In this document: piece after piece, positions 4,204 to 62,740 of the stretch
Layout of the letters: each line of letters opens with the position of its first letter
Numbering within the stretch: position 1 is the first letter of the stretch
Source of the DNA: a virus
Length of the DNA stretch: 64,000 bases
Strand: one strand, 5' to 3'
IMG/VR virus record: IMGVR_UViG_3300020048_000027
Coordinates: 1 to 64,000 of that record
Position numbers and translations under genes: made by a program
Notes under the pieces: generated by a model
Told to the model about the DNA's origin: nothing
Databases searched by the model: none
Seen by the model: only the letters and a program-made list of their open reading frames with translations

Positions 4204-5430
4204 CTACTGGTTAAATTTTCCTATTAATACTACCTGATCTACTCCTTGTACGATTGCATAAGCTAATCCTGTAAATATTACCTCTATTCCTGAGGTTGTT
4301 TCTACTACTGTTCTTACATCCCCTGGTTGAAGCACTCCATTCACATAAACTGTAAAATCGTCTTGTATTATTGAAAAACCTGCTGGTGTTAATGCAAAAG
4401 TTGCTCCTGTAAATAGTGCGGTATCTACATCCATTGTATCAGCAATTGCTGCTGTATTTGTACCTAGGTATACTATCTGCTCTGCTGTCATTCCCGGTAC
4501 TATGATTGTTGTTGGTGCTGCTGTACCTAAATTATCATAGAAACGTGTAGGAGCTCCTATTTCCGGTGTGTTTGCTTTGGCTATAAGTACCTCAGAACTA
4601 CCTTCTGTCTCTAGTTTAAAACTTACTGAAGATTTTGAAAAATACTTTAAAGATCCTTTAAGTTGTGCGTTAATTGTATCGGGTACAATATGACCTAACA
4701 ATTTTATATTAAAGGATGTCTTTACAGCCCTGTCTTTTCCTTGTGTTAATTCAGTCACTAACGTATAGTTATCAATCATTGCACGGAAACTAAACTTTTC
4801 CGAGTCTCCCCAATAAGCATCTGATGAATAGTTAATAGCTTCCACTAATTTATTCATTTGTTCCATGTACTCTGTAAATATTATACAGGAATACGTAATA
4901 TTAACGTAATCAGGTATAACTACTCCTTGGTATTCCTTTACTGCAACTCTGTTATTAACTAAGTTAAACTTACTATATACATTTTTCTGTGAGTATTTCT
5001 TTTCAAATACTCCTATATTGTTAGGATTGTTGGCATCTAGTTTATTCCCTAAGTTTCTATTCTTCTCCATCGAATCCCTCTTCACCATTATTAGCGGTGC
5101 TTGTATCTTCCCTTGAGCATCCCTATAGAATCCGTCCTGTTGTACTGATTTCCAACGTTCTGGAGATCCGTAGATAACTGGCACGTTTACAACTGTACCG
5201 TTTTGAACTACGCTCGGTTTTATTACGTTCTCAAAGTAGTAAAATATAGATTCATCAATATCCTTCAGCCCTAAGCTAAAATGCTGTGCACTATCACCTT
5301 TTACGCTTCTTTGATACTCCCTCTTCCTATTATCGACGGTTTTTACTGTTCCTTGGTTTGTATAGGCAGTGAAACTCTCTTCAGAAAGCTGTTTCTGTGT
5401 TTTAGGTGTGGGTTTCTTATTATCTGCCAT
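4204..5430 (-). CDS. tail terminator / sheath stabiliser (T4 gp15-like) with C-terminal extension
   Basis: VPVIYGSPERW, APLIMVKR, PDYVNITYS...MEQMNKLVEAI motifs; follows neck genes. Confidence 0.7.
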   Translation of the reverse strand: MADNKKPTPKTQKQLSEESFTAYTNQGTVKTVDNRKREYQRSVKGDSAQHFSLGLKDIDESIFYYFENVIKPSVVQNGTVVNVPVIYGSPERWKSVQQDGFYRDAQGKIQAPLIMVKRDSMEKNRNLGNKLDANNPNNIGVFEKKYSQKNVYSKFNLVNNRVAVKEYQGVVIPDYVNITYSCIIFTEYMEQMNKLVEAINYSSDAYWGDSEKFSFRAMIDNYTLVTELTQGKDRAVKTSFNIKLLGHIVPDTINAQLKGSLKYFSKSSVSFKLETEGSSEVLIAKANTPEIGAPTRFYDNLGTAAPTTIIVPGMTAEQIVYLGTNTAAIADTMDVDTALFTGATFALTPAGFSIIQDDFTVYVNGVLQPGDVRTVVETTSGIEVIFTGLAYAIVQGVDQVVLIGKFNQ

Positions 5431-5686
5431 ATTTTAAACTTATATGTGTTCTAAGTTGCTTTTTAAATGATGAGAAGATACTAAATAGTTTTTCTAACTT
5501 TGCATCATCCGGATATTTCTTCAACACATCCTTAAAGTCCTCATGAATACCCTCTAACTCCTTATCAATAGATTTTAACGGCGTATATTCCACATCCCAA
5601 CTGTACTGACCTGTTACTTGATCATAGTCTGTCTGTTTAGTCTTAAATTTACCGTCTTCCTCTCTAATAATATCTATTAATTTCAT
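5420..5686 (-). CDS. hypothetical protein with capsid-targeting-like leader
   Basis: N-terminus MKLIDIIREE. Confidence 0.65.
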   Translation of the reverse strand: MKLIDIIREEDGKFKTKQTDYDQVTGQYSWDVEYTPLKSIDKELEGIHEDFKDVLKKYPDDAKLEKLFSIFSSFKKQLRTHISLKYGR

Positions 5687-6169: not shown

Positions 6170-6475
6170 TTACTTCTTTTTTTCTATTGTTTTTTCCGCT
6201 ACTTCTAGTTTCTTAACCTCCGGTACTCTACTTATAGAGTTTTGCTTAAAAGCTGCGAATGCTTCCTGTGCTGTCTTAGTGGTTAGTATTTTTACCTTCA
6301 TAATAGCAGTATTGTTGTTTGATTCATGTGAAACTTGAGTAACTGTAAGTACTCCCGGCACTGCTCTCAACATTTCACCTACATCTTGTACTGTTGCATC
6401 TTCTGAATGTGTTATTCTCACCATAGCTTGGTATATTGAGAACTGTATTTCTAATATTATATCTGATATCTTCAT
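6170..6475 (-). CDS. hypothetical protein with capsid-targeting-like leader, possible ferredoxin-like fold
   Basis: MKISDIILE leader; LRAVPGVLTV / RVPEVKKL pattern. Confidence 0.6.
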   Translation of the reverse strand: MKISDIILEIQFSIYQAMVRITHSEDATVQDVGEMLRAVPGVLTVTQVSHESNNNTAIMKVKILTTKTAQEAFAAFKQNSISRVPEVKKLEVAEKTIEKKK

Positions 6476-9052: not shown

Positions 9053-10621
9053 TTACACTGTTTGTAGATCTGATACGAAAATACGACCGTAAAATTCTGG
9101 TCTTAACATTTTCTTCGCATATCTCGTCATAATCCCTTTGCGAGGGGTAAAAGTTTCTGGGTCATATACCAAAGGAGTCATCATTAATGGCACGTAAGGG
9201 GCATAAACAGCTCCTGTTTCCAAGAATTGTGATCCTCTGTATCCCATTAAGATACTATTTTCAGTCATGTAAGGATTTTTGTATACCTTATAACGTCCGT
9301 TCAATTGTCCTACTTTTTGTACACCAAAAGCAAAGTCCATTTTATCACCGTCTGTGTTAGCAGCATATCCAGGAATTGATTCAAGGATTGTAGCTACTGT
9401 TGGAGAACATACTAAGAAGTTAGCTCCACCACGTAAAGTTTTTTGGTGAATTTTGTTAGATACTTTTTGGATTTTAGTTCCTAAAGTTTGGAACCATTGT
9501 CCTTGTGTATTAAAGAAGTCTGAAGTAGCGGTTGACCATTTAGTACCGTTCCAGAATTTATTGTTAACTGCTGACCATTTTTCAGTTGTAGCAGCATCTT
9601 GAATTAACATATCCAAAATCTCTAAATCAATCTCCATAGAGATGTACTCAGATAATAGTGAAGTTAATTCTGCTTCTGCATCAATTGATTGGTAAGCGTT
9701 TAAATCTTGAGCAAACTCTGGAGTCCACTGAGCTTTCAACTTTCTAGTTTTAGCTATAATAGATTCAGATGCTAATTCAACGTTAATTTCTGGAATTACG
9801 ATTGATCCTCCTGGATTATCTTCAAAGTCTCCTCTTGAGTTATCTTTTGGCTGTAAGTGGTAAAGTACTGAACCGCTTAATACAGTTCCTACTATTCCAG
9901 TTTTTTTAACTACAAAAGTAACTACGTTTCCAGATACTGTTGTTAAGTCTGGGTTAGATGTTACGTCAGTAGATCCTGATAAGATTCTAAAAGCTCTTAC
10001 ACCTTCTGCATCAAATCCTGTGTTTATTAAATCTTTTTCAAATCTTAAGTATGCAGAAGGAAGAGTTCCGTCTTGATACGCAATAGAAGCAGATGTTGCA
10101 GCTGTACCTGATGCAGCAATAGATGCTGTAACTTCATTAATAGAGTATCCAAATTGACCTGCTCCATATAATCCTCCTGATACTTCTTCATCAACAGACA
10201 TTTTATTTGCAGCTGTAGATACATTACCATACATGTTTTCTGATGCTGTACGTCCGTTTACTCCTGTTCCGTATTTAAAGTCTAAGTAAAATACAAGACC
10301 TGAAGGTAAGCTCATCGGCTGAACAGATACAAAATCTTTTGCTGAAATTTGAGCGAATACTTTACGTACTAATGGTAAAGCAACTCCTGCCCACTGTTCA
10401 CCAGCTCCTGCTGAGAAGCTAGCTCCTGTTCCTGTGTTTGATTGTTCTGATACAATCTGTTTTGCTTGATTCTCAAGAATCATAGCCATGTTATTTCTGT
10501 CTACATCTTTAGTAATGTTTTCTAGTAGTCCAGATTTTTCCCATTTCGAGGCTAAACGAACAGCATCAGCTTGTAAGCTTTTGTAGTTGTTTGCACTTTC
10601 TAATAATTGATTTACTTCCAT
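9053..10621 (-). CDS. gp23: major capsid protein (T4 gp23-like)
   Basis: ILENQ, VQPMSLPSGLVFYL, AKTRKLKAQWTPEFAQDL, YAPYVPL, DPETFTPRKGIMTRY. Confidence 0.97.
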   Translation of the reverse strand: MEVNQLLESANNYKSLQADAVRLASKWEKSGLLENITKDVDRNNMAMILENQAKQIVSEQSNTGTGASFSAGAGEQWAGVALPLVRKVFAQISAKDFVSVQPMSLPSGLVFYLDFKYGTGVNGRTASENMYGNVSTAANKMSVDEEVSGGLYGAGQFGYSINEVTASIAASGTAATSASIAYQDGTLPSAYLRFEKDLINTGFDAEGVRAFRILSGSTDVTSNPDLTTVSGNVVTFVVKKTGIVGTVLSGSVLYHLQPKDNSRGDFEDNPGGSIVIPEINVELASESIIAKTRKLKAQWTPEFAQDLNAYQSIDAEAELTSLLSEYISMEIDLEILDMLIQDAATTEKWSAVNNKFWNGTKWSTATSDFFNTQGQWFQTLGTKIQKVSNKIHQKTLRGGANFLVCSPTVATILESIPGYAANTDGDKMDFAFGVQKVGQLNGRYKVYKNPYMTENSILMGYRGSQFLETGAVYAPYVPLMMTPLVYDPETFTPRKGIMTRYAKKMLRPEFYGRIFVSDLQTV

Positions 10622-11966: not shown

Positions 11967-12740
11967 TTAATCTAATGAATAATTTGCTAATGAATATAGT
12001 GTCATTACATATCCTGTTGCCACATTTTTTACAGTTGCCGATTTATTATCCGATGATAGTACTATATAAGTCTTTCCACTCCTAAATTTATTGGATAACT
12101 TACTACCTGGTCTTATATCATCAAAGTTGATTTTCTGCCGGAAACCGGGTGCTTCGTTCAATGGGTTCTCTAGTTCCTCAAGTGAATCTTCTACTTTTAA
12201 TATTTCCTGGGGTTTAAATTGAGATAAAAATTCTCTTGGAGAAGTTTCCATTGAACCATCTTTACCAGAAATATCATTACCATTTATTGTAAAAAACAAC
12301 CCTTTTTTACCTTTATACTCATCATCCCAATTCATATCTATAGCGAAATAATCACCATCTGGGAGGTCTAAAACTCTAAAAGAATTTTCTTCAATTTCTT
12401 CATCATCTAACCTTTCCTCTAAATTAACCGTACCTTCTATTTCTTCCAAGAATCTTTGTATTCTTCGGTCCGATTCCATGTCTTTATTAAGAATTGTAAC
12501 AGCATTTGGAAAATCATCTCCTCTTCCAAAATGCCACTCATAGTCTACATCTTCTTCATAATTTTTAAAACCGTATCTCTGTTGTAAGGTTTCTTCAAAC
12601 TCTTCCATATTCATACCGAAACTATTTGCCATATCATCGCTAATAGTGTAAGTAGTCGTTTTCTCCTCTTTTATAAGTTTAGAAACCCTAGTAAGCTTAT
12701 TTTCTGTTAAAAAATTTCTTAAGTTAAAAGTACTGTTCAT
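11967..12740 (-). CDS. putative internal head (cargo) protein with FxLxxFLxENK leader
   Basis: MNSTFNLRNFLTENKLTRVSKLIKEE; segments separated by LEE/IEE/LNE sites. Confidence 0.65.
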   Translation of the reverse strand: MNSTFNLRNFLTENKLTRVSKLIKEEKTTTYTISDDMANSFGMNMEEFEETLQQRYGFKNYEEDVDYEWHFGRGDDFPNAVTILNKDMESDRRIQRFLEEIEGTVNLEERLDDEEIEENSFRVLDLPDGDYFAIDMNWDDEYKGKKGLFFTINGNDISGKDGSMETSPREFLSQFKPQEILKVEDSLEELENPLNEAPGFRQKINFDDIRPGSKLSNKFRSGKTYIVLSSDNKSATVKNVATGYVMTLYSLANYSLD

Positions 12741-12758: not shown

Positions 12759-13337
12759 TTATACTCTTAATATATCGTTAATAATGTTGTGGACTTTTCC
12801 GTACTTACTTTCTTCTTGCTTTCCTTCATTTAGTGATATAGCAGTCATAAAAGCTCCTTGTGTTGAAGGATTTGATACAAAATCCCATGCACTTAGTTCA
12901 AAGTCATCTTGAACTTCTAAAGTTCCTTCATTTGTCTGTTGAACTGATCCGGTTCCTCTTGAGGAGATTCCGATTGTATGTCCTGCTTTGACTATCTCTT
13001 TAACAATATTTCCAGAAGGGGTGTTAAGTAGCTCAATTACACCTCTTAGCTCATCTCCTTCCCACCATAATTTTTTTATTACGTGAGATGCATTCTTAAG
13101 AGAGACTATTATCGAGTCTGGGTGATCTAGTTCTCCGTAGGCATTCCCTACTTTTACAAAATTCTGTTCGTAAAGTTTAACTTCTCTTTCCAATATTTCT
13201 TTTGCGTAAACTCTACCATTCTGGTTTTTAGCTCCAGCTCTTTGTAATATTCCCTCTACTTCAAAGACTCCAGGTTTTTCTCTGGATTCTCTGAGTAAGG
13301 ATCTGAAAGGTGTTACCTCTACTAATAGTTCTTTCAT
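12759..13337 (-). CDS. gp21: prohead protease (T4 gp21-like)
   Basis: NQNGRVY, GELDHP, SHVI, GISSRGTGS, DFVSNPS motifs. Confidence 0.95.
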   Translation of the reverse strand: MKELLVEVTPFRSLLRESREKPGVFEVEGILQRAGAKNQNGRVYAKEILEREVKLYEQNFVKVGNAYGELDHPDSIIVSLKNASHVIKKLWWEGDELRGVIELLNTPSGNIVKEIVKAGHTIGISSRGTGSVQQTNEGTLEVQDDFELSAWDFVSNPSTQGAFMTAISLNEGKQEESKYGKVHNIINDILRV

Positions 13338-13570: not shown

Positions 13571-15451
13571 TTACTTTTTTTTATTTGTATATTTGGTACT
13601 TTTTGTTTTTCCTTCATTCATTGAAAAAGATGTTCCAGCAGTTTCACTTGGATCAAACCCTAGTTTTTCTAATTCCTCAGGTGATATTCTTTTACTCTTA
13701 GGCAGTTCAATTGTCATATACTTATCTAGTACAGGTTTTAGATCATTTTTAAAAGCTTTGGATACTGCTGGAGCCATAAAAGATCCTATTGTTGTGTACA
13801 CTCCTTCAATTCCTTCTCTTGCTTCTAAATAAGTCTTCTCTATCTTTGCAATATAGTCCGCTAGGGAAGTTGCTCCTTTTCTAATACGTGATGCAAGATC
13901 TTCATTTGCATCATTCTCGTAATTTATAAATCTTTCTAAGTTCTCTGCTTTAGCTTCCTTAAGCATTTTCTTATCCTCTGTAAGTATGTTTGTAATTAGT
14001 TTCTTAAAGGTTTCTTTTAATTGCTCTTCTTTACTTCCCTCGTTTAATCCCTGTTCTTTATTTTTCTTTGCTGCGTATGCTTGTGCATCTTTTTTTTCAG
14101 CAAATCCTTTCACTCTAATTTCTCCTTCCCATACTGCCCAAGGTTCCTTTTTATTTTTACAAGGGCGTACTATATACTTATCGTTCGTATTACCTGAGTG
14201 ACTTTCATTTACTCCTTCCCAGTCTTGGCTTCTCAGTACTTGCATTAAAGCGAAGACAGCATCTTGTGTTGAATAATTATACCTACTAGCTAATCCCCCT
14301 ATAAATCTATTTACAAGTTTAGTTACTTCTGGATTAATATTTTCATTTAATTTAGATTCATTTTCTTCTTCATAATCTAGAAAATCAGTACTAGTTTCAC
14401 CTTTATCTACTCTAGGTTCGTAGTCTCTTCCAGGTTCATATCTTCCGTCACTAAAACCTTCTTCTACGTCTACTTCTAAAAGCTCTCCTGAGAGGTAGTT
14501 GATTAGATCTTTCTTAGCGTGGGGTACCATGCCAGGTTCTGTCATTTCACCATTCTTCCATTCATCCCAGACTACTAATAAATGTTTAATAGCCTTGTTC
14601 AATCTCGGTCCCATTGACTCTACATACCCTCCTGTGTCGTAATCATTCTCTGTTACAACTTTTCCGCCTTTCATTTTAGCTCTTCTACCTTCTTCTAAAG
14701 TTAATTGATCTACTTGCAATGCACCTTCTTCACCATCAAGGTAATCATATGCTCCTTGTAGTTTATCCTTAGCACTACTTATTTTAGCCTGCCACCAATC
14801 TGGGAAGTCTACCTCAGAGGACATTTTATCGTACTTATCTAACTTCTTATATAACATTACTGCTAATTTAGCAGCTCTATATGCTTTCTTTTTCAACATA
14901 GCCGGTTCATTATCTTGATGTCCTACATCTAAATCTCCTACACTGTAGTCGCTTTCGTTAACCGTCTCAGTGTTTTTCTTTTTAACTACTGCTTCCTTTT
15001 TTAGATCTGCTTTCTTTAAGCCGTTGAAAGTATCTACTGTATTTTTTGATGTTGCTGCTGTAAGTTTATCGTGCTTATCTACTTTTTTAGATTCTCCTGC
15101 AATATCGTTAATATAAAAATTAGGATCTTTCTTAAGATTTTTTAATGCTTTGTCTTTAGCTTTGTTAAAGTCTTCTTGTGAAATAGTCTCTTGTGACATT
15201 AGTCCAGCTTTCTCTAATTCGATATCTATTCCTTGCTCCATTGCACCCATTGAAAACTTATCTATGTTTGCTTCTGGTTCTGATACCTTCTCTGATAACA
15301 TACCTTTACCTCTAAGTATTGATACTGTATCATCATACCCGTTAAATTGAGTAATTAAATTAGGAAGCCCTAATCTGGCATCTCTTACAAATTGTGATTT
15401 TGAGAATGCTCCTTCTTGTATGGCGTTATATTTTTCCTGTAATGTTTTCAT
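13571..15451 (-). CDS. multi-module internal head protein (putative polyprotein)
   Basis: MKTLQEKYNAIQE start resembles T4 capsid-targeting leaders; DUF5661-like GIDIELE...KNLKKDPNFY; about 10 (L/V/M)-x-E sites between modules. Confidence 0.6.
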   Translation of the reverse strand: MKTLQEKYNAIQEGAFSKSQFVRDARLGLPNLITQFNGYDDTVSILRGKGMLSEKVSEPEANIDKFSMGAMEQGIDIELEKAGLMSQETISQEDFNKAKDKALKNLKKDPNFYINDIAGESKKVDKHDKLTAATSKNTVDTFNGLKKADLKKEAVVKKKNTETVNESDYSVGDLDVGHQDNEPAMLKKKAYRAAKLAVMLYKKLDKYDKMSSEVDFPDWWQAKISSAKDKLQGAYDYLDGEEGALQVDQLTLEEGRRAKMKGGKVVTENDYDTGGYVESMGPRLNKAIKHLLVVWDEWKNGEMTEPGMVPHAKKDLINYLSGELLEVDVEEGFSDGRYEPGRDYEPRVDKGETSTDFLDYEEENESKLNENINPEVTKLVNRFIGGLASRYNYSTQDAVFALMQVLRSQDWEGVNESHSGNTNDKYIVRPCKNKKEPWAVWEGEIRVKGFAEKKDAQAYAAKKNKEQGLNEGSKEEQLKETFKKLITNILTEDKKMLKEAKAENLERFINYENDANEDLASRIRKGATSLADYIAKIEKTYLEAREGIEGVYTTIGSFMAPAVSKAFKNDLKPVLDKYMTIELPKSKRISPEELEKLGFDPSETAGTSFSMNEGKTKSTKYTNKKK

Positions 15452-15456
15452 TTAAC

Positions 15457-15654
15457 TTATTTTACTGTTTTATATCCTAATTTCTTTAAATTTTCTGTAG
15501 CTCTATTAGTTTTTTTCTTACTAAAAGCTTTCGGTGTTGCATACTGTGCTCCTTGACCGGCTGTAAAACTTGCACCGCCGACATTAGTTGCGCTCATTTC
15601 ATTTAACTCCTGTAATACTTCCTTTATAATGCTTTTTAATTCACCTATCTTCAT
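15457..15654 (-). CDS. small head-region protein
   Basis: MKIGELKSIIKEVLQELNE leader then MSAT...YATPKAF. Confidence 0.65.
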   Translation of the reverse strand: MKIGELKSIIKEVLQELNEMSATNVGGASFTAGQGAQYATPKAFSKKKTNRATENLKKLGYKTVK

Positions 15655-20237: not shown

Positions 20238-20711
20238 TTAGTACAATGATTCAGCAGCCAATTCTCCTAACTCTCCTGTGTCGCGGTATTCGTCTGTTAG
20301 TTGGTCTAACTCGTTGTCATTTAAAGGAGTTCCGTCTGTAAATTCTGCATACGTAATAAATGCATCTACGAAGTCTGGATAGTCCTTTGAATCTACTCCG
20401 TCAATTTCAATAGAGCTATGTTCTACTTTAGATGAAAGTTCCTCTGTAGGCTCACTGGTTTGCAAAGGCCCTATTAGCATACTAATTTTATAGTCTCTTC
20501 CCGGTTCCTTTTCTGCTAACCTTGCAGCAAGAACTCGTTCAACATCTTGTTTATCTTCTGCATCTATCTGATATCCGTACTGTATCCCTGGTTTATCTGT
20601 AAATGATACTCCCACTCTGTAATGTCCCATTTCTTGTTCCTTAAGAAGTCTTGCATTTTTTGTAAGTTTATTCTCCGATAGGAATTGTCTTAAATTAAAG
20701 TTATCTGCCAT
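20238..20711 (-). CDS. putative internal head (cargo) protein; start revised to MADNF at 20711
   Basis: Leader MADNFNLRQFLSENKLTKNARLLKE with TATTTATA at 20730-20737; C-terminal IDGVDSKDYPDFVDAFI module. Confidence 0.7.
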   Translation of the reverse strand: MADNFNLRQFLSENKLTKNARLLKEQEMGHYRVGVSFTDKPGIQYGYQIDAEDKQDVERVLAARLAEKEPGRDYKISMLIGPLQTSEPTEELSSKVEHSSIEIDGVDSKDYPDFVDAFITYAEFTDGTPLNDNELDQLTDEYRDTGELGELAAESLY

Positions 20712-20745: not shown

Positions 20746-21024
20746 TTAATACCAGTCTCCATTTCTTTCGATATCTTCAAAGTAATCATCAATACTGTCA
20801 TACTGATCTTTTACTGCATTCCATTCTTCGTAGTGAGCTTGTATTCCTGCTTCCTCTTCTTCTGGACTTAGTTCATCTGCTTGAGGATTTGTGCTAAAAT
20901 ACCAGTTTTCAATTACATCCTTATCACCCCCATTAAAGTCTTGATCTACATATTCTTTTAATAATCTTGAGTTAGCAGTTATTTTATTCTCTACTAAAAA
21001 TTTTTTTAAATCAAAATTGCTCAT
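20746..21024 (-). CDS. putative internal head (cargo) protein
   Basis: MSNFDLKKFLVENKITANSRLLKE leader, acidic cargo. Confidence 0.7.
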   Translation of the reverse strand: MSNFDLKKFLVENKITANSRLLKEYVDQDFNGGDKDVIENWYFSTNPQADELSPEEEEAGIQAHYEEWNAVKDQYDSIDDYFEDIERNGDWY

Positions 21025-21089: not shown

Positions 21090-21500
21090 TTATTGAACTA
21101 TTGAGTAGTCTTCTGCTTCAAAAAATACAACTGCTAGTTTATAATTTTTATCTCTAGGCATCTCGTCTGCTAAGACTGTATTATTATCGTATTCATAAAA
21201 TACAGGGAAATCATCTCCTTCCTGATACTCTTCCATAAAATCCTGCTTCAACTCTTCAAGTTCTTTTGCAAGTCTTATAGGATCCTGCTGATAAGGTCTA
21301 CCCTGTTCGCTGTGAATGACAGTAACCGGTTTAGTCATATCCACTCCTGCTTTCTTAAAGGCTTCTTCTACTGGGTATTTTGCGTCTTCAATACCTTTTA
21401 TAGGTGATGAAGAAGGAGTAAATTCTTCTTTTAATAATCTTGAATTAGTAGTTATTTTATTCTCTACTAAGAATTGTCTTAAATCAAAGTTATCTGCCAT
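21090..21500 (-). CDS. putative internal head (cargo) protein
   Basis: MADNFDLRQFLVENKITTNSRLLKE leader; TATTTATA at 21519-21526. Confidence 0.7.
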   Translation of the reverse strand: MADNFDLRQFLVENKITTNSRLLKEEFTPSSSPIKGIEDAKYPVEEAFKKAGVDMTKPVTVIHSEQGRPYQQDPIRLAKELEELKQDFMEEYQEGDDFPVFYEYDNNTVLADEMPRDKNYKLAVVFFEAEDYSIVQ

Positions 21501-24763: not shown

Positions 24764-25342
24764 CTATTTTACATGTTCTGAAAGAAGAGTTATATACTGT
24801 TTTAAGTTTGCTAGGATTTTACCCTTAAATTCAACTGTATTTACATTCCAATCCTCTATATCTCCTTGTTCGGTTACAAAGTTCTGTTTTTCCTCTACTA
24901 ACTCTAGTGCCCATTGCTCAATATCTTTCATAAACCCTTTTATATTTCCTCGCATCATCCTCTGCTCATATTGCTCATAAAGTCCTGCTTTCCTTAAATT
25001 CGACTCTATATCAACTGTACAATCAAAGCAAAAACCATGTATCTTATACATCTTCTTAGCTAGATGATGCTCCATCCCTCCGTTACACTTTGGACACCTT
25101 AACGGTACTCGTAGGGCTTTTTTTGCTTCATCTAACTTAGTAATATTTTGTCTTAGCCCGTTCTTTATAGTCCACTGCTTACCACTTTCTTCCCAGATAT
25201 CACCTTCTCTGTACTTTTCTAATTTCTTGGTATATCCGGTTTGAAGTTTTGTAGATGCACCGTAGTTTTTACTCACTATGTTACGAACTCTCTCAACATC
25301 GCTCCGTTTAAATTCTTTTTTTAATAACGATTCCTTAGCCAT
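24764..25342 (-). CDS. zinc-ribbon hypothetical protein
   Basis: CPKC...CFDC. Confidence 0.7.
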   Translation of the reverse strand: MAKESLLKKEFKRSDVERVRNIVSKNYGASTKLQTGYTKKLEKYREGDIWEESGKQWTIKNGLRQNITKLDEAKKALRVPLRCPKCNGGMEHHLAKKMYKIHGFCFDCTVDIESNLRKAGLYEQYEQRMMRGNIKGFMKDIEQWALELVEEKQNFVTEQGDIEDWNVNTVEFKGKILANLKQYITLLSEHVK

Positions 25343-25883
25343 TATAACCTAATTTTTTTAAATGATTAATAACTGGTGTAATATTACCATATAGACATCT
25401 TAAAGCTATTCCTCCGCTCTGAGTCCATTCTTCAATATTTGACCTTTTATCGTCTATCAGTATTGATTCTGGAGATGCATATTTCTGTTTATCTCCTGCT
25501 ACTGCGAAAATTACTTTCGGTGAGTCTGTCAAATTATCTCTCACCCATAGGCTTTTTCCCACTCTAGAATTGTTGTCTCTCGAAGGTGATGTAAGTATTT
25601 TAGGGTTATACGGTCTTATGAAATTCCACAATTCTTCTCCTCCGGGCATCCATTCCATTTCTGTCCAGAATTTTAAACCTACTTGAACATCCACTAAGTG
25701 CCAAAAAGCAGCAGCACCGTGTTTCTGTTCATACTCATCCGGGGAGACTCCTGTAAAGTGTTCAAATCTACCTTGAAAATTTGTCAACACTCCATCCATA
25801 TCACAATAGATCTGGTACTCTGGTTTGATTGTCTCCTCTGGTGTGCTCTCTAGCCCTATTAGTTCGATTAAACTGTACTTCAT
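25335..25883 (-). CDS. HAD-family 5'(3')-deoxyribonucleotidase (NT5C-like)
   Basis: YCDMDGVL motif I, ILTS, K, ILIDD motif IV; short MKYSLIELIGLE leader. Confidence 0.85.
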   Translation of the reverse strand: MKYSLIELIGLESTPEETIKPEYQIYCDMDGVLTNFQGRFEHFTGVSPDEYEQKHGAAAFWHLVDVQVGLKFWTEMEWMPGGEELWNFIRPYNPKILTSPSRDNNSRVGKSLWVRDNLTDSPKVIFAVAGDKQKYASPESILIDDKRSNIEEWTQSGGIALRCLYGNITPVINHLKKLGYNG

Positions 25884-28800
25884 AGTTTTTCTTTTATTCC
25901 TAATGCTGGTAATCTCTTACGCCACAGTTCCTTTATTTCCTCTTTCTCCTGTAAGGTAATATCTTGTCCTTTCAAATACTCCTCTGCTGCGGCTGCAAAT
26001 GAAACTTTCTGTTTTTTAGCTTTATAGTATAATCCTTGAATATTTGCATCAACTTCTTTTTCTAACTTAAAATACTCTGCGTTTCTTACTATTCCTGCTT
26101 TTACTAAAGCTCTTATCGTGTTATCGTCCTCTAGAAATTTACCGGTTTTTGTATTATCTGAATCTGAATGTGTTAAGTGCTCTATTTCATGTCTTATAAT
26201 GTCTTTCAAGTTCATTGAAATTATTTCCCAAGCTTCCGGTAGCATTTCTGGATCTACTGTGAATACTGCTTCTATATAATCGTCATATTCTGCTTCTGCT
26301 GAATAGTCAGCTCCACCGTCCATTGTAAGTTTTCCGTACCCTTCTTCCACTACTAGTACTGCTTTAACATCAAAAGCTACGTCATTATTATCATAACTTT
26401 CTTCATAAACTATACTGTCTTCTTGGGAATCTATATTATTCTTCCAGTATCTAAAAATGTCTGAGGATACCTGGTTTGTTATTGTATCGTATCTACCTTC
26501 TGACATTATTTGCGGTATTTCTTCTTTACTGCGGTTGTAGTAGTTTATATCTTTACTTAGCATGTTGAATGCTTGTTGCATAGCTAAGTCCTCACTAAAG
26601 TCATTATCCTTTAGCTCAATTTTTGCACCATTTGCTAATTTACCAAGTATTGTGCTCACCCCTACGTTGTATTTACTTGCGAGCGTACTTATTGTTTCCT
26701 CTGTTCTTCCTCCTCTATCCCTAATACTTTCATCCGTAGTTTTCATCTTTTCAATATCTTGAGATGTTTCTTTACCTAGATTCTTTACCTTATCCTCCCA
26801 GTTTCTAAAAGTTATATTTCCTTTTAGATAAGCTTCTTCTTCTATTTCTCTCAGGTGTGTGCTTGAATTAGTATCTGAACTTTCTATTTGGCCTAGCCTT
26901 CCTTCTAGGTTTTGCATATGATGAATCATCTCGTGTGTAAACGATCTCATAATATCTTTTGGATGTCTTCCTTCAACATACAGAACAACTTTCTTTTCGT
27001 CAGGGTCATAGTATGCAGTTCTTCCAAAGAAATTTGCTGATTCACTAGCATCTCTTTTTATACAAACTTCCGGTATTGGAACTACTTTCATTCCTTCTTT
27101 TATCATATGTTCTAATATAGAAGCCATATAAGGGGTATAATCATGTCCAACAGTCCCTTTTTCTGTCTTACGCTTTACTATTATATGATCACCGTTAAAA
27201 TTTATTTCATATTCCTCATTTCCTAACAGATTAAGAATCTGTCCGTACGTATCTGCTAATTCTGCCCTCTGTTCTGAAGAAACTACTTCTCCTGGCTTAA
27301 TAGCTGCTCCGTGAAAGTCCTTACTACTTTCTTCTTCTTGTGTTTCGAACATATTATCTAATGTAGTATTTAATGCTTCATGCATTAATATCTCCTGTTC
27401 GGTTGGTGCATTTTTCATGGCTATCTGTGTTACTGCTTTTCTTCCTTTTTCCCCTATCTCATCTGGTATCCATTCTCCGTTTTTTAAATACCTAACTGAG
27501 CTCCTCATTGTTGTTGCTGATAGTTTATTTTCTTCGTCTCCTATCTTAGGTAGTACTAATACCTCTACATTTGGATATTTCTCTCTATTTTTCTCAAAGT
27601 ATATAAACTTTGCAAGTTCTTCCTCTAATGCACCTGTTATAATTTTAGAGTAGTTATCCTTGTTCTGGTCTACAAAGTCATAAATATCTCTTACAGGTGT
27701 TACTGAGCTAATTCTTATCTCTACAGGCACATTTAAATACTCTGCATATATTTGCCAAATTTTCTCAGACTGTTCTGGCGATATTCTAATACCTTCCCTA
27801 ATTTTCGGACCTATAAATATTATAAGTTTATCAGCTTTTCCTGCTAATATCCTTGCATTATTAAAATGAGCTCTATGAGGCGGCTTAAAACCTCCTGCGT
27901 AAAGTGCTATTACTTCCCCTGTTGACACTTCTTCTGTTAGGTTTTCTACGTCTGAAGGGTATCTCTTATTTTTAACATTAAATGCTTTCATCCATGGTAA
28001 CTTTTTCCAAGTACTTACTCCTTTAGGGGTCTCTGCATCATAATATTTTCCTTTATATTCAAGCCATACATGTCCGAAAGATTCATTTGGACCTTCCATT
28101 TCTTCTGTATGCATTATTACAGAGCCTGGCAATCTCTTCTGTAACTTATAGGCAAATATATCACAGAATCCTTTATTACATTCCTTGCCATCAAAAACAT
28201 CCCAGTTTTTATGTACTATCTCTAATGCCTCTTTTTCAGTCTGAGATAGTAGATCTTTGTAATCTATATTTTCATCCTCTAATAACGTGTTCACTGCGTT
28301 GAGTGCGTACTCTTTTCCTTTAGCTTTCTCTGTGCCTACTTCACCTGTTTTAACCGATACCATACTATTAAAGATTCCTTTAATTCTACTCTTAGATCTT
28401 GGGTTCTTAACTTTCCTCCCTATCTCTGCCAATAGTTCATCAAAATTAGCATCTAGGTTATAGTTTCTAAAAAGTTCCTTTATCAGGTCCCAGTTTGTAG
28501 AACTCCATAAATCTTCTCTCGACACTTGGCTAAAGTTTTCTAATTTTACTTTCCTTAAAGTTAACTTATTCGAACTTAAATTAAATTCAAACTCCTCATT
28601 AGAGTCTAACGTAGGTAAATCTCCTATACTTAGTCTTTTAAAGATCTCTGCTGGATTTTCTTCTAGTAAAACTACTTTGGATAGTCCTAAAATAAGTCCT
28701 TGTTTTTCAGCAGGTAGATCTAGGAAATTATTTTTAAATGCATGCTCTTCCTCGGATAATGCAATTATATTATCTACCTGTATGAATTCTCCTGGTTTTC

Positions 28801-29131
28801 CCTCAATTGGAAAAAGTACTGTTATTATTTCACCTGAGTTATAGTACTTTTTACCTGTGTATTTTTCACTTTTAAAAGGGACTATTAAACTATTTGGTGA
28901 ACTATTTGCTTGTTTTATTAACCTTTGTTTAACCTCTTTTTTATCGTCTCCTTCAAAATATACTATTAAGTCTAGATCTCCATAATCTGGTTTTGTTCCT
29001 ACCTTTACGCTACCTGATAATGTTGCTAATTTAAAACCAGGTATTTTTTCTAGAAAGGTTTTTATATATTTGTTGAACGTACTCTGTACGTCTACCTTCT
29101 GTATGCGGTTTCCTCCTGCTACGCCGCTCAA
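25880..29131 (-). CDS. six-domain polyvalent protein: Pol-beta-like NTase + Cys-His-Asp (transglutaminase/papain-like) + HIGH-family nucleotidyltransferase + zincin + DUF5661-like + zincin
   Basis: GSV...DYGDLDL and IQVD; GFCDIFA...GHVW...YYDAE; YAGGFKPPHRAH...LSATTMR; THEMIHHMQ...EEEAY; GAKIEL...MLSKDINYY; RHEIEHLTH...EVDANIQG. Confidence 0.7.
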   Translation of the reverse strand: MSGVAGGNRIQKVDVQSTFNKYIKTFLEKIPGFKLATLSGSVKVGTKPDYGDLDLIVYFEGDDKKEVKQRLIKQANSSPNSLIVPFKSEKYTGKKYYNSGEIITVLFPIEGKPGEFIQVDNIIALSEEEHAFKNNFLDLPAEKQGLILGLSKVVLLEENPAEIFKRLSIGDLPTLDSNEEFEFNLSSNKLTLRKVKLENFSQVSREDLWSSTNWDLIKELFRNYNLDANFDELLAEIGRKVKNPRSKSRIKGIFNSMVSVKTGEVGTEKAKGKEYALNAVNTLLEDENIDYKDLLSQTEKEALEIVHKNWDVFDGKECNKGFCDIFAYKLQKRLPGSVIMHTEEMEGPNESFGHVWLEYKGKYYDAETPKGVSTWKKLPWMKAFNVKNKRYPSDVENLTEEVSTGEVIALYAGGFKPPHRAHFNNARILAGKADKLIIFIGPKIREGIRISPEQSEKIWQIYAEYLNVPVEIRISSVTPVRDIYDFVDQNKDNYSKIITGALEEELAKFIYFEKNREKYPNVEVLVLPKIGDEENKLSATTMRSSVRYLKNGEWIPDEIGEKGRKAVTQIAMKNAPTEQEILMHEALNTTLDNMFETQEEESSKDFHGAAIKPGEVVSSEQRAELADTYGQILNLLGNEEYEINFNGDHIIVKRKTEKGTVGHDYTPYMASILEHMIKEGMKVVPIPEVCIKRDASESANFFGRTAYYDPDEKKVVLYVEGRHPKDIMRSFTHEMIHHMQNLEGRLGQIESSDTNSSTHLREIEEEAYLKGNITFRNWEDKVKNLGKETSQDIEKMKTTDESIRDRGGRTEETISTLASKYNVGVSTILGKLANGAKIELKDNDFSEDLAMQQAFNMLSKDINYYNRSKEEIPQIMSEGRYDTITNQVSSDIFRYWKNNIDSQEDSIVYEESYDNNDVAFDVKAVLVVEEGYGKLTMDGGADYSAEAEYDDYIEAVFTVDPEMLPEAWEIISMNLKDIIRHEIEHLTHSDSDNTKTGKFLEDDNTIRALVKAGIVRNAEYFKLEKEVDANIQGLYYKAKKQKVSFAAAAEEYLKGQDITLQEKEEIKELWRKRLPALGIKEKL

Positions 29132-29160: not shown

Positions 29161-30072
29161 TTATACTGCTTTATATGGTGTTAGCTTAGACTCATCAGGT
29201 AAAAATTTACCTTTTAAACCTAATTCAGACTGTCTAGATATCCAGTATTTCTGTAAGTCCTCTGGTATATCCGCTCTTGTACTGTCTAATATTTTTAAAT
29301 AAGTATCCAATACATTTGCTAGGTCCTGTTCGCTAAGATCTTTTCTAAGCTTTTCCATTAGTTTAAAATAATCTCCTAACACTGTATTATCAAACTCTGT
29401 ATTATACAAGGTGCTTAATAGTTTAATTGCTTTTCTAGGAGTATCGGCTTCGATTTCTTGGGTCTGTTTGTTCTTTACGCCGTAGTTATGTGAAAATGTA
29501 TATCCCTTATTTGCGAATAAAGATATCATAAGTTGAGTTCTATGTAAACCTTTTACATTACCTTTATATGTTGCAGAATGATATGCAAATTCTAACCACT
29601 TTACATCCCCTATGTTAATATCTATTTGTACTCCTACATGTAATTTCTCTCCTTTTTCATCGTACTGAGGGAATGCTAAAAATAGAGCTCCTGCTCCTGA
29701 TCCTTTTTCATCCACATCTATATCTGTGTTTGCTCCTTCTATTTTTCTTGCCATAGAAGTTATTATCGCACGTTTAATTAACTGCTTATCTGTAGCTGTT
29801 TTTGATCTTGTCTTAAACTTTAAAAAGAATTCAGTTACCTCCTTCTTATCTAATCCCCAATCTTCTATTTTTTTAAACACATCTCCCGATAAAGCTAAGT
29901 CAATATCTCCTGAGTAATCTTTCTTATAAACTGATCCTAAAGGTCTAATATCCTTAAAATACTTTCTTGCACCTGGGAAAAGTATCCCTAAATGCTCGTA
30001 AAACTTTTTTAAGGTTGGTGCTATGTGCTCTTTCTTAATTGGTGCTGTTGTATTAAATATATTTCCTCCCAT
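29161..30072 (-). CDS. Pol-beta-superfamily nucleotidyltransferase
   Basis: LGSVYKKDYSGDIDLAL (hGS..DxD) plus VQIDINI third Asp; paralogous to the N-terminus of 25880..29131. Confidence 0.75.
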   Translation of the reverse strand: MGGNIFNTTAPIKKEHIAPTLKKFYEHLGILFPGARKYFKDIRPLGSVYKKDYSGDIDLALSGDVFKKIEDWGLDKKEVTEFFLKFKTRSKTATDKQLIKRAIITSMARKIEGANTDIDVDEKGSGAGALFLAFPQYDEKGEKLHVGVQIDINIGDVKWLEFAYHSATYKGNVKGLHRTQLMISLFANKGYTFSHNYGVKNKQTQEIEADTPRKAIKLLSTLYNTEFDNTVLGDYFKLMEKLRKDLSEQDLANVLDTYLKILDSTRADIPEDLQKYWISRQSELGLKGKFLPDESKLTPYKAV

Positions 30073-31945: not shown

Positions 31946-32377
31946 CTATACGTCTGTCATTTTTAAATGTCCAGTCTTAGGGTCTACCATAAAGTTATCT
32001 GGTCTAATATCCAGCTCTTCCGGGTCTATTCCTAAGTTGCTAGCCTCCTTTTCTAAGTTATCTAAGAACTCTTCTGGCATCTCCGATTTGTTTTTTCCCA
32101 TAATCGGCATTGTAATTATGCCCAGTTTTTCAGATAACCTTTCTACATCGTAAATGTATACGAAGTTATTTGTTTTTTTACCTTTCAGTATTTCTGCATG
32201 ATCTAGTTCTATAGGATCTGTTGTTACTTTATAAGCTTTCCCGTTTAATAAGTATACTGATCCGTAATCTCCTGAACCTATATATTTTGCACCTTCATCT
32301 TCCAACTTATCTACCTCTCGATTAAATTTAGCATCGTATTCGAGCGGCCCTTCTAATATAATCCTAGAGAGTTTCAT
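31946..32377 (-). CDS. minimal protein-kinase-like (PKL) enzyme with capsid-targeting-like leader
   Basis: YIGSGDYGSVY Gly loop, AYKVT, DIRPDNF catalytic loop, LKMTD; MKLSRIILEG leader. Confidence 0.75.
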   Translation of the reverse strand: MKLSRIILEGPLEYDAKFNREVDKLEDEGAKYIGSGDYGSVYLLNGKAYKVTTDPIELDHAEILKGKKTNNFVYIYDVERLSEKLGIITMPIMGKNKSEMPEEFLDNLEKEASNLGIDPEELDIRPDNFMVDPKTGHLKMTDV

Positions 32378-32832
32378 TAGCTAACGTCCATTGAATCATC
32401 ATAACTTGCTTCTATTTCGAGAGCTTGTAATTGCTCTACAATATTATCCAATATAGTACTATCGTATCTTCGCGGTATCTTCACCCCTTCAACACCTAAG
32501 TAATCTAGTAGATCGTTTGCCTCTTCTATACCTAGCTTATCTCTTTGTTCTCCTCTAAATAAATAAGTAGTATAGTACCGTCCTGATCCTGCTATATATG
32601 TTATATCAATTTTACTTATATTGTCCACAAGTCCCTCTGATAGATCGTTTGACATTGTTAAGTCCAAAAATGCAGATGCTACTGCATATTTAAGTCTTTC
32701 GTAATTTAATTCTGGAAATGTCTTAAATATTTCGTCTGCTACAACTTTCACTCTTTTTGAGGCCTTCTCATTAGACTGTTCAACTCTACTGGTTACCTCG
32801 TCTGCCTCTATTAGTATTCTAGATAGTTTCAT
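32377..32832 (-). CDS. hypothetical protein with capsid-targeting-like leader
   Basis: MKLSRILIEA; internal LSEG site; TATTTATA at 32858-32865. Confidence 0.7.
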   Translation of the reverse strand: MKLSRILIEADEVTSRVEQSNEKASKRVKVVADEIFKTFPELNYERLKYAVASAFLDLTMSNDLSEGLVDNISKIDITYIAGSGRYYTTYLFRGEQRDKLGIEEANDLLDYLGVEGVKIPRRYDSTILDNIVEQLQALEIEASYDDSMDVS

Positions 32833-46940: not shown

Positions 46941-47189
46941 CTATTTTTTAATTTTTTGAAGAAACAACTTATAATACTTATCTCTCATTACTTTCTGAGC
47001 CTCGGGTGTTAATTTATCAAACTGATCTCCCACTTCTCTAGCAGCTGCCATTACATACTGTGCGGACTTTTCCATTCCTGTAATATGTCCATCTTTCTCA
47101 GCAGTATTTAAAAGCTTCACCTGAGTGCTTGGTTTCTGCCTGTTTATTAACTCTTCTTTAATTAGTTCAATAAGTTCTTTTTTTTTCAT
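46941..47189 (-). CDS. hypothetical protein with helical leader
   Basis: MKKKELIELIKEEL. Confidence 0.65.
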   Translation of the reverse strand: MKKKELIELIKEELINRQKPSTQVKLLNTAEKDGHITGMEKSAQYVMAAAREVGDQFDKLTPEAQKVMRDKYYKLFLQKIKK

Positions 47190-62230: not shown

Positions 62231-62452
62231 TTACTCTTTTTCAGCATAAAACCTTATCAACATTACACCATCTTCCTCCTCTATTAAACTATCAATTAGT
62301 ACAACATCACTATGTTGATAACCTTCTGTATATCCTCCTTCATCAAATTGTGTAAGGATTGGATAGTTTAAATCATTTTCTAACATTTTCTCTACATTTA
62401 GTAAAGTGTTTTCTAAGCTTTCTTTTAGTCTAAGTAAATTCTGTTTTGTCAT
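62231..62452 (-). CDS. hypothetical early protein (duplicate copy)
   Basis: Identical to 62519..62740. Confidence 0.7.
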   Translation of the reverse strand: MTKQNLLRLKESLENTLLNVEKMLENDLNYPILTQFDEGGYTEGYQHSDVVLIDSLIEEEDGVMLIRFYAEKE

Positions 62453-62518: not shown

Positions 62519-62740
62519 TTACTCTTTTTCAGCATAAAACCTTATCAACATTACACCATCTTCCTCCTCTATTAAACTATCAATTAGTACAACATCACTA
62601 TGTTGATAACCTTCTGTATATCCTCCTTCATCAAATTGTGTAAGGATTGGATAGTTTAAATCATTTTCTAACATTTTCTCTACATTTAGTAAAGTGTTTT
62701 CTAAGCTTTCTTTTAGTCTAAGTAAATTCTGTTTTGTCAT
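62519..62740 (-). CDS. hypothetical early protein (duplicate copy)
   Basis: Identical to 62231..62452. Confidence 0.7.
   Translation of the reverse strand: MTKQNLLRLKESLENTLLNVEKMLENDLNYPILTQFDEGGYTEGYQHSDVVLIDSLIEEEDGVMLIRFYAEKE

Follow-up and report, generated by a model that had tools for sequence, protein, structure and literature searches.

The locus and its modular protein

We examined a 64,000-nucleotide window of viral DNA (positions 1 to 64,000 of IMG/VR record IMGVR_UViG_3300020048_000027), in which a minus-strand open reading frame (ORF) at 25880-29131 encodes a protein of 1083 residues composed of six modules. The ORF starts with TTG, and its homologues start at the equivalent place, beginning MSGxAGG. 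A sequence-only reading of this window had described the protein as an effector polyprotein with sites of the prohead-protease type at its domain boundaries, and the ORF contains every motif quoted there, in the same order and spacing: DYGDLD at residue 49, GFCDIFA at 321, GHVW at 353, YYD at 363, GGFKPPHRAH at 413, SATTMR at 538, HEMIH at 733 and HEIEH at 981, together with LLE-D at 283, LTE-E at 398, MHE-A at 583, TDE-S at 799 and MSE-G at 876. The window covers the arm of a 153.6-kb phage genome in which the structural and replication genes lie, with nearly all genes on the minus strand, and the head is of the T4 type (Gp23 capsid, Peptidase_S77, Gp20 portal and T4-type large terminase). 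This immuto-like phage has its closest cultured relatives in the Flavobacterium phages vB_FspM_immuto, whose homologue (gp088) is 907 residues long, 55% identical and annotated as an NMN (nicotinamide mononucleotide) adenylyltransferase; its neighbours are primase, exonuclease and a hypothetical protein to one side and a 5'-nucleotidase to the other, a gene order also found in the window.

Module boundaries were obtained by three independent approaches, homology breakpoints, AlphaFold2 modelling and fold comparison, and all of them agree (Table 1). Breakpoints in BLAST and phmmer comparisons with relatives fall at about residues 285, 400, 590-660, 786 and 872. The AlphaFold2 model, built on a 73-sequence alignment (mean predicted local distance difference test score, pLDDT, of 82.6), has low-confidence linkers between confident bodies at 287-295, 381-404, 596-615, 787-807 and 867-875; thus the structure prediction that had been suggested as a check on the boundaries puts linkers where homology breaks, with the fifth module, M5, poorly modelled. 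A PHROGs search returned no family for the protein, no module scored above the Pfam cut-off, a single-sequence search against the Protein Data Bank (PDB) gave no match, and the MPTase-PolyVal hub and LPD Pfam models gave none at E up to 1, while an Atlas lead to LPD23 was weak (0.87). Foldseek with the whole model was dominated by Pol beta entries, and the domains were separated with a representative-based structure aligner.

The N-terminal module, M1, is modelled with a pLDDT of ∼95 and was correctly recognized from sequence as a Pol-beta nucleotidyltransferase (NTase): it matches TdT (Z 12.0), Pol beta (Z 11.8) and African swine fever virus (ASFV) PolX (Z 11.0, 162/176 residues aligned), with a Foldseek E of 3e-6 and a weak Pfam match to NTP_transf_2. 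Its motifs are GS at 40-41, D-L-D at 52-54 and a third Asp in QVDNI, where QxDNII is conserved in the family, and its last helix carries LLE-D (283-285). M1 shares the palm and thumb and the GS and carboxylate motifs with minimal family X polymerases (ASFV Pol X, the Pol beta palm-thumb and TdT) but aligns with them over palm and thumb only, apparently without the 8-kDa and fingers domains, is only 10-17% identical to them, and has an extra C-terminal helical part (230-285). M1 might extend the ends of nucleic acids by nucleotide addition.

The second module, M2, is a rare insert, present in few relatives and encoded by a separate small gene in other phages. Cys323, His354 and Asp365 are invariant, as the Cys-His-Asp domain proposed earlier would have it, and lie at a helix start and on two strands; their placement appears to fit a papain-like arrangement, in a model whose pLDDT of ∼50 leaves the papain or transglutaminase call at that level. 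M2 is probably YunG-like: against PF24591 (cut-off 27) it scores 16.5 bits and a stand-alone homologue (P0278) 26.1 bits, two further homologues (P0275 and P0276) are assigned to PF24591 in precomputed tables, and the nearest named Atlas cluster is YunG-like. One related contig (L044, 19462-19794) encodes a YunG-like module 63% identical to M2 that lies ∼6 kb downstream of the polyprotein and not inside it.

M3 is a HIGH-family NTase, as had been proposed. It matches NadM (2qjt, Z 13.2), PPAT (Z 12.6) and archaeal NMNAT (Z 12.4), its profile finds the PDB at E 5e-6, and its signatures, PPHRAH (417-422) and SATTMR (538), are conserved in the family. Compared with NadM, NadR, NadD and PPAT, M3 has the same fold and both signature motifs, but its identity to them is 12-18% and it is not accompanied by a Nudix or kinase domain. 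For the immuto homologue, annotation as an NMNAT is insecure, because the fold suits NMNAT and PPAT equally and the genome is without NadV: the 153.6-kb genome gave no PF04095 match, whereas control genomes were positive. A role in nicotinamide adenine dinucleotide (NAD) salvage through NadV with NadM or NadR was rejected on account of this absence.

Beyond a disordered joint lies M4, whose first zincin motif had been recognized from the letters. The structural match is moderately strong: M4 aligns with Wss1 (5xbn) at Z 8.4 over 105 residues (model range 644-783), and HEMIH (733-737) sits in a helix (724-742) behind three strands and is kept as HEMIHH in the family consensus. M2 and M4 might both be hydrolases. 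For M5, the proposed DUF5661-like helix bundle found no support; no Pfam family matched, and DUF5661 itself gave no match at E up to 1 for this poorly modelled module. M6, modelled alone, reaches a pLDDT of 87. The second zincin motif is confirmed as an invariant RHExEHLT, on which the designation of M6 as possibly a zincin is based, but a clear fold match is lacking: the best PDB match reaches Z 5.0, several weak ones being to gluzincin aminopeptidases and PprI, Foldseek against the PDB was empty, and in BFVD the module matches only uncharacterised phage proteins (one at E 2e-12).

Table 1. Modules and joints of the 1083-residue protein and other features of the window
Feature	Residues	Window positions	Strand	Remarks
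M1	1-285	28277..29131	-	Pol-beta-superfamily NTase, family X palm and thumb fold
M2	286-400	27932..28276	-	YunG-like; LTE-E (398-400) in tail
M3	401-596	27344..27931	-	HIGH-motif NTase, NMNAT/PPAT type
Joint M3/M4	597-618	27278..27343	-	Disordered, pLDDT 29-48
M3b and M4	619-786	26774..27277	-	Small alpha/beta lead-in and minimal zincin, Wss1/SprT-like
M5	787-875	26507..26773	-	Rare helical insert, pLDDT 42-70, in few relatives
MSE-G junction	876-878	26498..26506	-	Just ahead of first helix of M6
M6	879-1083	25883..26497	-	D..RHExEHLT invariant; possibly zincin
T4 gp21-type prohead serine protease		12759..13337	-	Peptidase_S77, E 8e-31
Gp23-type capsid propeptide	1-49	10475..10621	-	LLE-S, LLE-N, ILE-N
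Gp23 major capsid protein		9053-10621		E 9e-82
Small proteins with T4-spaced leaders		5420-5686, 6170-6475, 31946-32377, 32377-32832, 15457-15654, 46941-47189	-	
Four unrelated ORFs		11967-12740, 20238-20711, 20746-21024, 21090-21500	-	Common 25-residue N-terminal leader
626-residue protein		13571-15451	-	Between portal and protease
Gene upstream of polyprotein		29161-30072	-	303 residues, distant M1 paralogue
Gene downstream of polyprotein		25335-25883	-	NT5C/HAD-type nucleotidase
Adjacent 73-residue ORFs		62231-62452, 62519-62740	-	

Joint motifs across a shuffled family

Relatives of the protein are numerous and combinatorial. Profile-free searches found 1027 of near length and 3077 clusters at 50% identity, and among 150 representatives the presence of modules, their order and the inserts all vary. 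The core and commonest combination is a trio of the HIGH NTase M3 with the two HExxH modules, M4 and M6; M1 may be absent, M2 and M5 seldom occur, the order is at times permuted, and foreign modules are inserted. The listed representatives span 222-1580 residues, with fused forms from ∼600, and stand-alone proteins exist for M1, M2 and M3-M4. The locus, by contrast, is constant in the T4-type phages sampled: the gene lies behind primase and a PD-(D/E)XK exonuclease in 80/80 viral contigs retrieved and in two distant representatives, and a few kilobases before TerL and portal in contigs that extend far enough. Within one large phage clade the gene is thus hypervariable while its position is fixed, as has been described for polyvalent proteins (PMC5512222). 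Four related contigs (L042, L043, L058 and L065) have a zinc-ribbon-like CHxCGHD motif inserted right before the junction that precedes M6, which reads h-x-E-GRYD.

To quantify conservation at the joints, we aligned the 150 representatives to the query and scored every column occupied by 20 or more sequences (902 in all), taking as the score the fraction of sequences with Glu in a column and L/I/V/M/F two positions earlier (h-x-E) and using clusters below 50% identity. The top three h-x-E columns in the whole protein are 878, 400 and 285, all of them in or edging flexible linkers. At column 878 (MSE-G, pLDDT ∼55 in a flexible tail) h-x-E occurs in 96% of 82 aligned relatives and the next residue is Gly, Ala or Ser in 100%; the values are 81% at column 400 (LTE-E) and 64% at column 285 (LLE-D, 44 aligned relatives). 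Three of the five columns with at least 50% h-x-E lie in linkers, which contain 7.6% of the columns (P=0.004). Thus, among the five linker sites listed in the sequence-only reading, LLE-D, LTE-E and MSE-G stand out as the most conserved and are located in flexible linkers, whereas MHE-A is inside a helix and retains h-x-E in just 35% of relatives, and TDE-S, in M5, falls outside the protease pattern.

The motif is also found at joints that differ from those of the query. At the M3/M4 joint, relatives have a conserved h-x-E-GSSGTPIAP in a disordered stretch, with Glu at P1 in 77/80 and I/V/L at P3 in 64/80 distinct contexts; in the query this site has decayed to SKD-FHGAAIKP, and MFE-T (594-596) stands at the start of the joint. 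In the immuto homologue, predicted cuts would follow the Glu of TLAE, of VVKE (before GSSGTPIQ) and of VMAE (before GRYDT). Ahead of M3, h-x-E occurs 8-18 residues before GxFKPP in 47/47 internal and 42/43 N-terminally extended copies, regardless of whether the upstream part is the last helix of M1, the tail of M2 or a leader. The most extended case is a relative of 1580 residues (P0137, L087:7180-11922) with nine h-x-E-(V/I)-K-I-N-x-P cassettes spaced 77-167 residues apart, where a rough estimate from composition expects ∼0.15 copies. The segments between the cassettes have no mutual similarity outside the cassette (best E 0.028), and the synonymous codons of the cassettes differ; therefore the peptide is conserved and not the DNA. 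On the same two grounds, unrelated flanks and varied synonymous codons, we rejected repeated domains and recombination joints as explanations of the cassettes.

These comparisons bear on the question of which enzyme would act at the joints. One candidate is the protein itself, which might cut the same joints with its metallopeptidase-like parts, namely the Wss1-like zincin, the HExxH domain or both, whether in the cytoplasm, inside the head or once delivered. M4 does resemble the Wss1 protease, the commonest trio of the family includes two HExxH modules, and, according to Iyer et al. (2017, PMC5512222), autoproteolysis is proposed for the MPTase hub and encapsidation of N4 vRNAP requires its zincin-containing MPTase region. 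Against self-processing, M6 has no confirmed peptidase fold, and relatives without any HExxH still have h-x-E at the end of M1, which argues against the need for a zincin in cis, while the site there may be partly structural. Moreover, to require Glu at P1 and a hydrophobic residue at P3 is characteristic of the gp21 family and is not known to be typical of zincins. We consider self-processing unlikely.

The prohead protease, leaders and neighbouring genes

A candidate enzyme is encoded in the same window. The gp21-type protease named in the sequence-only reading is confirmed by its Peptidase_S77 match (Table 1), and the LLE-S noted at the capsid N-terminus indeed lies in the propeptide, whose sites are conserved as h-x-E in five related phages. 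In T4, Leu or Ile is said to be preferred at P3, a preference that Black et al. reportedly described in 1994. Proteases of the gp21 family characteristically cut after Glu and depend on a determinant at P3, in T4 (PMC9026906) as in phiKZ, 201phi2-1 and SPN3US (PMC5694885). T4 cargo requires a 10-residue N-terminal targeting sequence, in which residues 4 and 7 serve targeting and residues 8 and 10 processing; Asp at P1 prevents processing, and Alt is trimmed at both ends (PMC9026906).

Comparable leaders are present in the family and in the genome. Many relatives without M1 begin with an amphipathic leader of 14-18 residues, MNxLTKFLxxxLLxE, ending in L-x-E. We rejected the possibility that this leader is part of the M3 fold: it is dispensable for M3, as 24 relatives begin directly at strand 1, and in two relatives it stands in front of first domains other than M3. 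Similar leaders occur on stand-alone M2 proteins and on the neighbouring nucleotidase and P-loop genes of relatives. Across the genome of the query phage, a plain test for N-terminal h-x-E is weakly positive (P=0.014), and N-termini with T4 spacing (h..hh.E ending at residues 8-13, a pattern chosen after examples had been seen) occur in 12/195 genes against 2.7 expected (P=2e-5), 10 of the 12 in the structural arm. The small proteins in this set have leaders that include MKLIDIIRE, MKISDIILE, MKLSRIILE and MKLSRILIE. Taken together, the leaders of M1-less relatives, those of stand-alone M2 and neighbouring genes, and the genome-wide enrichment of T4-spaced N-termini make it very probable, on sequence grounds, that the phage uses leader-directed loading. 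Non-leader routes also exist, as the N4 vRNAP case indicates.

Two further groups of genes carry N-termini of this kind. Four unrelated ORFs share a 25-residue leader (consensus ∼NFxLRxFLxENKxTxxSRLLKE) with two h-x-E sites; one of them adjoins the prohead protease, and two have the same upstream AACTATTTATAAATAAAAATAAAATACAA. The 626-residue protein encoded between portal and protease begins with MKTLQEKYNAIQE followed by G, a start that we take to resemble the T4 internal-protein targeting sequence MKTYQEFIAE, and it is likely a large head-internal protein.

A short upstream element accompanies some of these genes. TATAAATA occurs at 29 sites in the window against 15.4 expected, including 18513, 20122, 20730, 21519, 8977, 7643, 38965 and 52805, and 21/29 are on the plus strand; therefore the element reads TATTTATA in gene orientation. 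It is found 14-35 nt before the start codons of ∼12 genes of the window, among them TerL, portal, two leader-bearing ORFs and tail-region genes, and is a candidate late promoter or 5' element.

The 303-residue protein encoded directly upstream of the polyprotein is a distant paralogue of M1 (pairwise E only 0.16), whose GSV...DYSGDIDLAL lines up with GSV...DYGDLDLIV of M1. This gene is present only in loci whose polyprotein begins with M1; in M1-less loci its place is taken by a Walker-A (P-loop) protein with a leader, e.g. MIKLSELILE. The nucleotidase encoded downstream (weak Pfam match, DMDG motif) has an N-terminal extension of ∼20 residues beginning MKYSLIELIGLE, and h-h-E at residues 6-11 is retained in 7/8 examined relatives. 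Elsewhere in the window, the two adjacent 73-residue ORFs agree in all of their first 26 residues (MTKQNLLRLKESLENTLLNVEKMLEN), suggesting that they arose by tandem duplication.

Proposed processing in the head and its alternatives

We propose that the protein is a packaged protein of the polyvalent type with what appear to be conserved Glu-type processing joints, and that it is processed by the head protease, a reading to which we assign a probability of roughly 45%. The chain is probably cut into separate enzymes, because the joint motif is conserved across thousands of shuffled relatives. The six modules (a PolX-like NTase, a YunG-like module, an NMNAT/PPAT-like adenylyltransferase, a Wss1-like zincin, a helical insert and an HExxH domain) are strung on flexible joints whose motif, hydrophobic-any-Glu and usually then a small residue, matches the specificity of T4-type prohead proteases. 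In the most likely mechanism, the chain would enter the prohead, where the phage gp21 homologue would cleave it after E285, E400, E878 and perhaps E596. The products would be the NTase (33 kDa), the YunG-like protein (13 kDa), the HExxH domain (24 kDa) and the adenylyltransferase, the last either free or still joined to the zincin. All fragments would exit with the DNA, and a role in host takeover or counter-defence may follow injection.

Several observations weigh against this reading. First, the enrichment of h-x-E in linkers that had been predicted for this sequence was not borne out: the protein is 11% Glu and contains 22 [LIM]xE sites, of which 4 lie no more than 3 residues from a low-confidence linker, where 2.6 would be expected (P=0.25), and for the strict pattern [LI]xE the count is 2/19 (P=0.67). 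Judged in the single sequence, boundary sites are no more frequent than chance. Second, the route into the head that T4 uses is not evident, since the query has no N-terminal targeting leader; the chain opens directly with the first strand and helix of the NTase fold, and its sole early h-x-E, FLE at 26-28, is 3% conserved. Third, in a search of the window no copy of TATTTATA was found before the polyprotein gene, which lies 29 nt behind the paralogous NTase gene, downstream of primase and exonuclease. Fourth, some of the conservation could be structural, as GRYD, part of the conserved motif before M6, belongs to the fold, and stand-alone M1 proteins end at or beside the same Glu as the M1-end site. 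Finally, no virion proteomics was found in the literature for the immuto phages or other relatives. The earlier proposal of cleavage by the head protease is thus strengthened by the family-wide joint motif and the presence of the protease, and weakened by the single-sequence counts, by MHE-A and TDE-S, and by the missing leader and late-gene element.

The first of these points would also be expected if the boundary motifs were chance products of a proteome rich in Glu, Lys, Leu and Ile. In this phage h-x-E occurs at 2.4% of proteome positions, and the plain N-terminal test described above gave only a weak signal. Chance does not explain why the linker motifs are conserved across clusters below 50% identity and at several independent junction types, and we regard it as very improbable.

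The second and third points are what one would expect of an unprocessed cytoplasmic enzyme of the replication or nucleotide-metabolism block, in which the joint motifs would serve helix capping, docking or domain packing. Such an enzyme accords with the fixed synteny with primase, the PD-(D/E)XK exonuclease and the NT5C-like nucleotidase, with the lack of both leader and late-gene element, and with module types that are housekeeping-like. It leaves unexplained, however, why the top-conserved h-x-E columns are in disordered linkers and why a nine-fold cassette is kept as protein, not DNA, between unrelated modules; the extreme shuffling of modules at one locus is typical of conflict proteins (PMC5512222), and a role in NAD salvage has no NadV partner. 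An unprocessed enzyme thus appears somewhat unlikely.

It is instructive to compare the proposed head-protease substrate with known systems. Polyvalent proteins unite unrelated enzymatic domains in one polypeptide, including Pol-beta NTases and zincin-like peptidases, and it has been proposed that they are delivered along with the DNA and that proteolysis then frees their domains (Iyer et al. 2017, PMC5512222). The protein described here resembles them in its at least four distinct enzyme-like folds or families and in extreme domain shuffling. Unlike them, it has a core of the HIGH NTase and two HExxH modules without MPTase or LPD Pfam matches, its gene is in the replication block and not beside MuF or portal, and its joints have a defined Glu-type motif, which, by our reading, that source (PMC5512222) does not describe.

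With the T4 internal proteins IPI-III and Alt, the system shares a homologous protease, the same P3/P1 pattern and, in relatives and neighbouring genes, amphipathic leaders of 10-18 residues that end in a site. In T4, however, the cut strips a terminal propeptide from single-domain cargo, whereas here the sites lie between domains, which would make the head protease an enzyme that processes polyproteins; in addition, the 1083-residue protein is leaderless. The ejection and inner-body proteins of phiKZ, 201phi2-1 and SPN3US are likewise large, head-internal and cut after Glu at short motifs, often at multiple sites, but there long propeptides are removed (motif S/A/G-x-E) and the cuts are not known to separate distinct enzymes (PMC5694885). 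These proteins have no sequence relation to the polyprotein family.

A broader version of the proposal extends to a large clade of aquatic T4-like phages, in which the prohead protease would cut a hypervariable, reshuffled string of nucleotide enzymes at h-x-E joints inside the head for delivery with the DNA. Neighbouring single-domain enzymes whose T4-like leaders would target them to the head, namely the HAD nucleotidase, the P-loop protein and the YunG-like protein, would be carried along. Together they would amount to a packaged toolkit for nucleotide metabolism, of a kind so far undescribed. This broader version seems less likely than not.

The proposal brings polyvalent proteins and the T4 targeting-and-processing system, both already known, together in a new form. 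If the head protease does cut these joints, the T4 system would extend from the trimming of propeptides to the release of several enzymes from one precursor. The sequence rule of h-x-E in flexible joints together with leaders would then predict head cargo in uncultured T4-like phages. The idea is directly testable in the cultured phage vB_FspM_immuto on Flavobacterium sp. LMO8. The family has more than 3000 clusters, at least three of its modules are without annotation, and its locus is fixed and fast-evolving, as expected for a conflict system.

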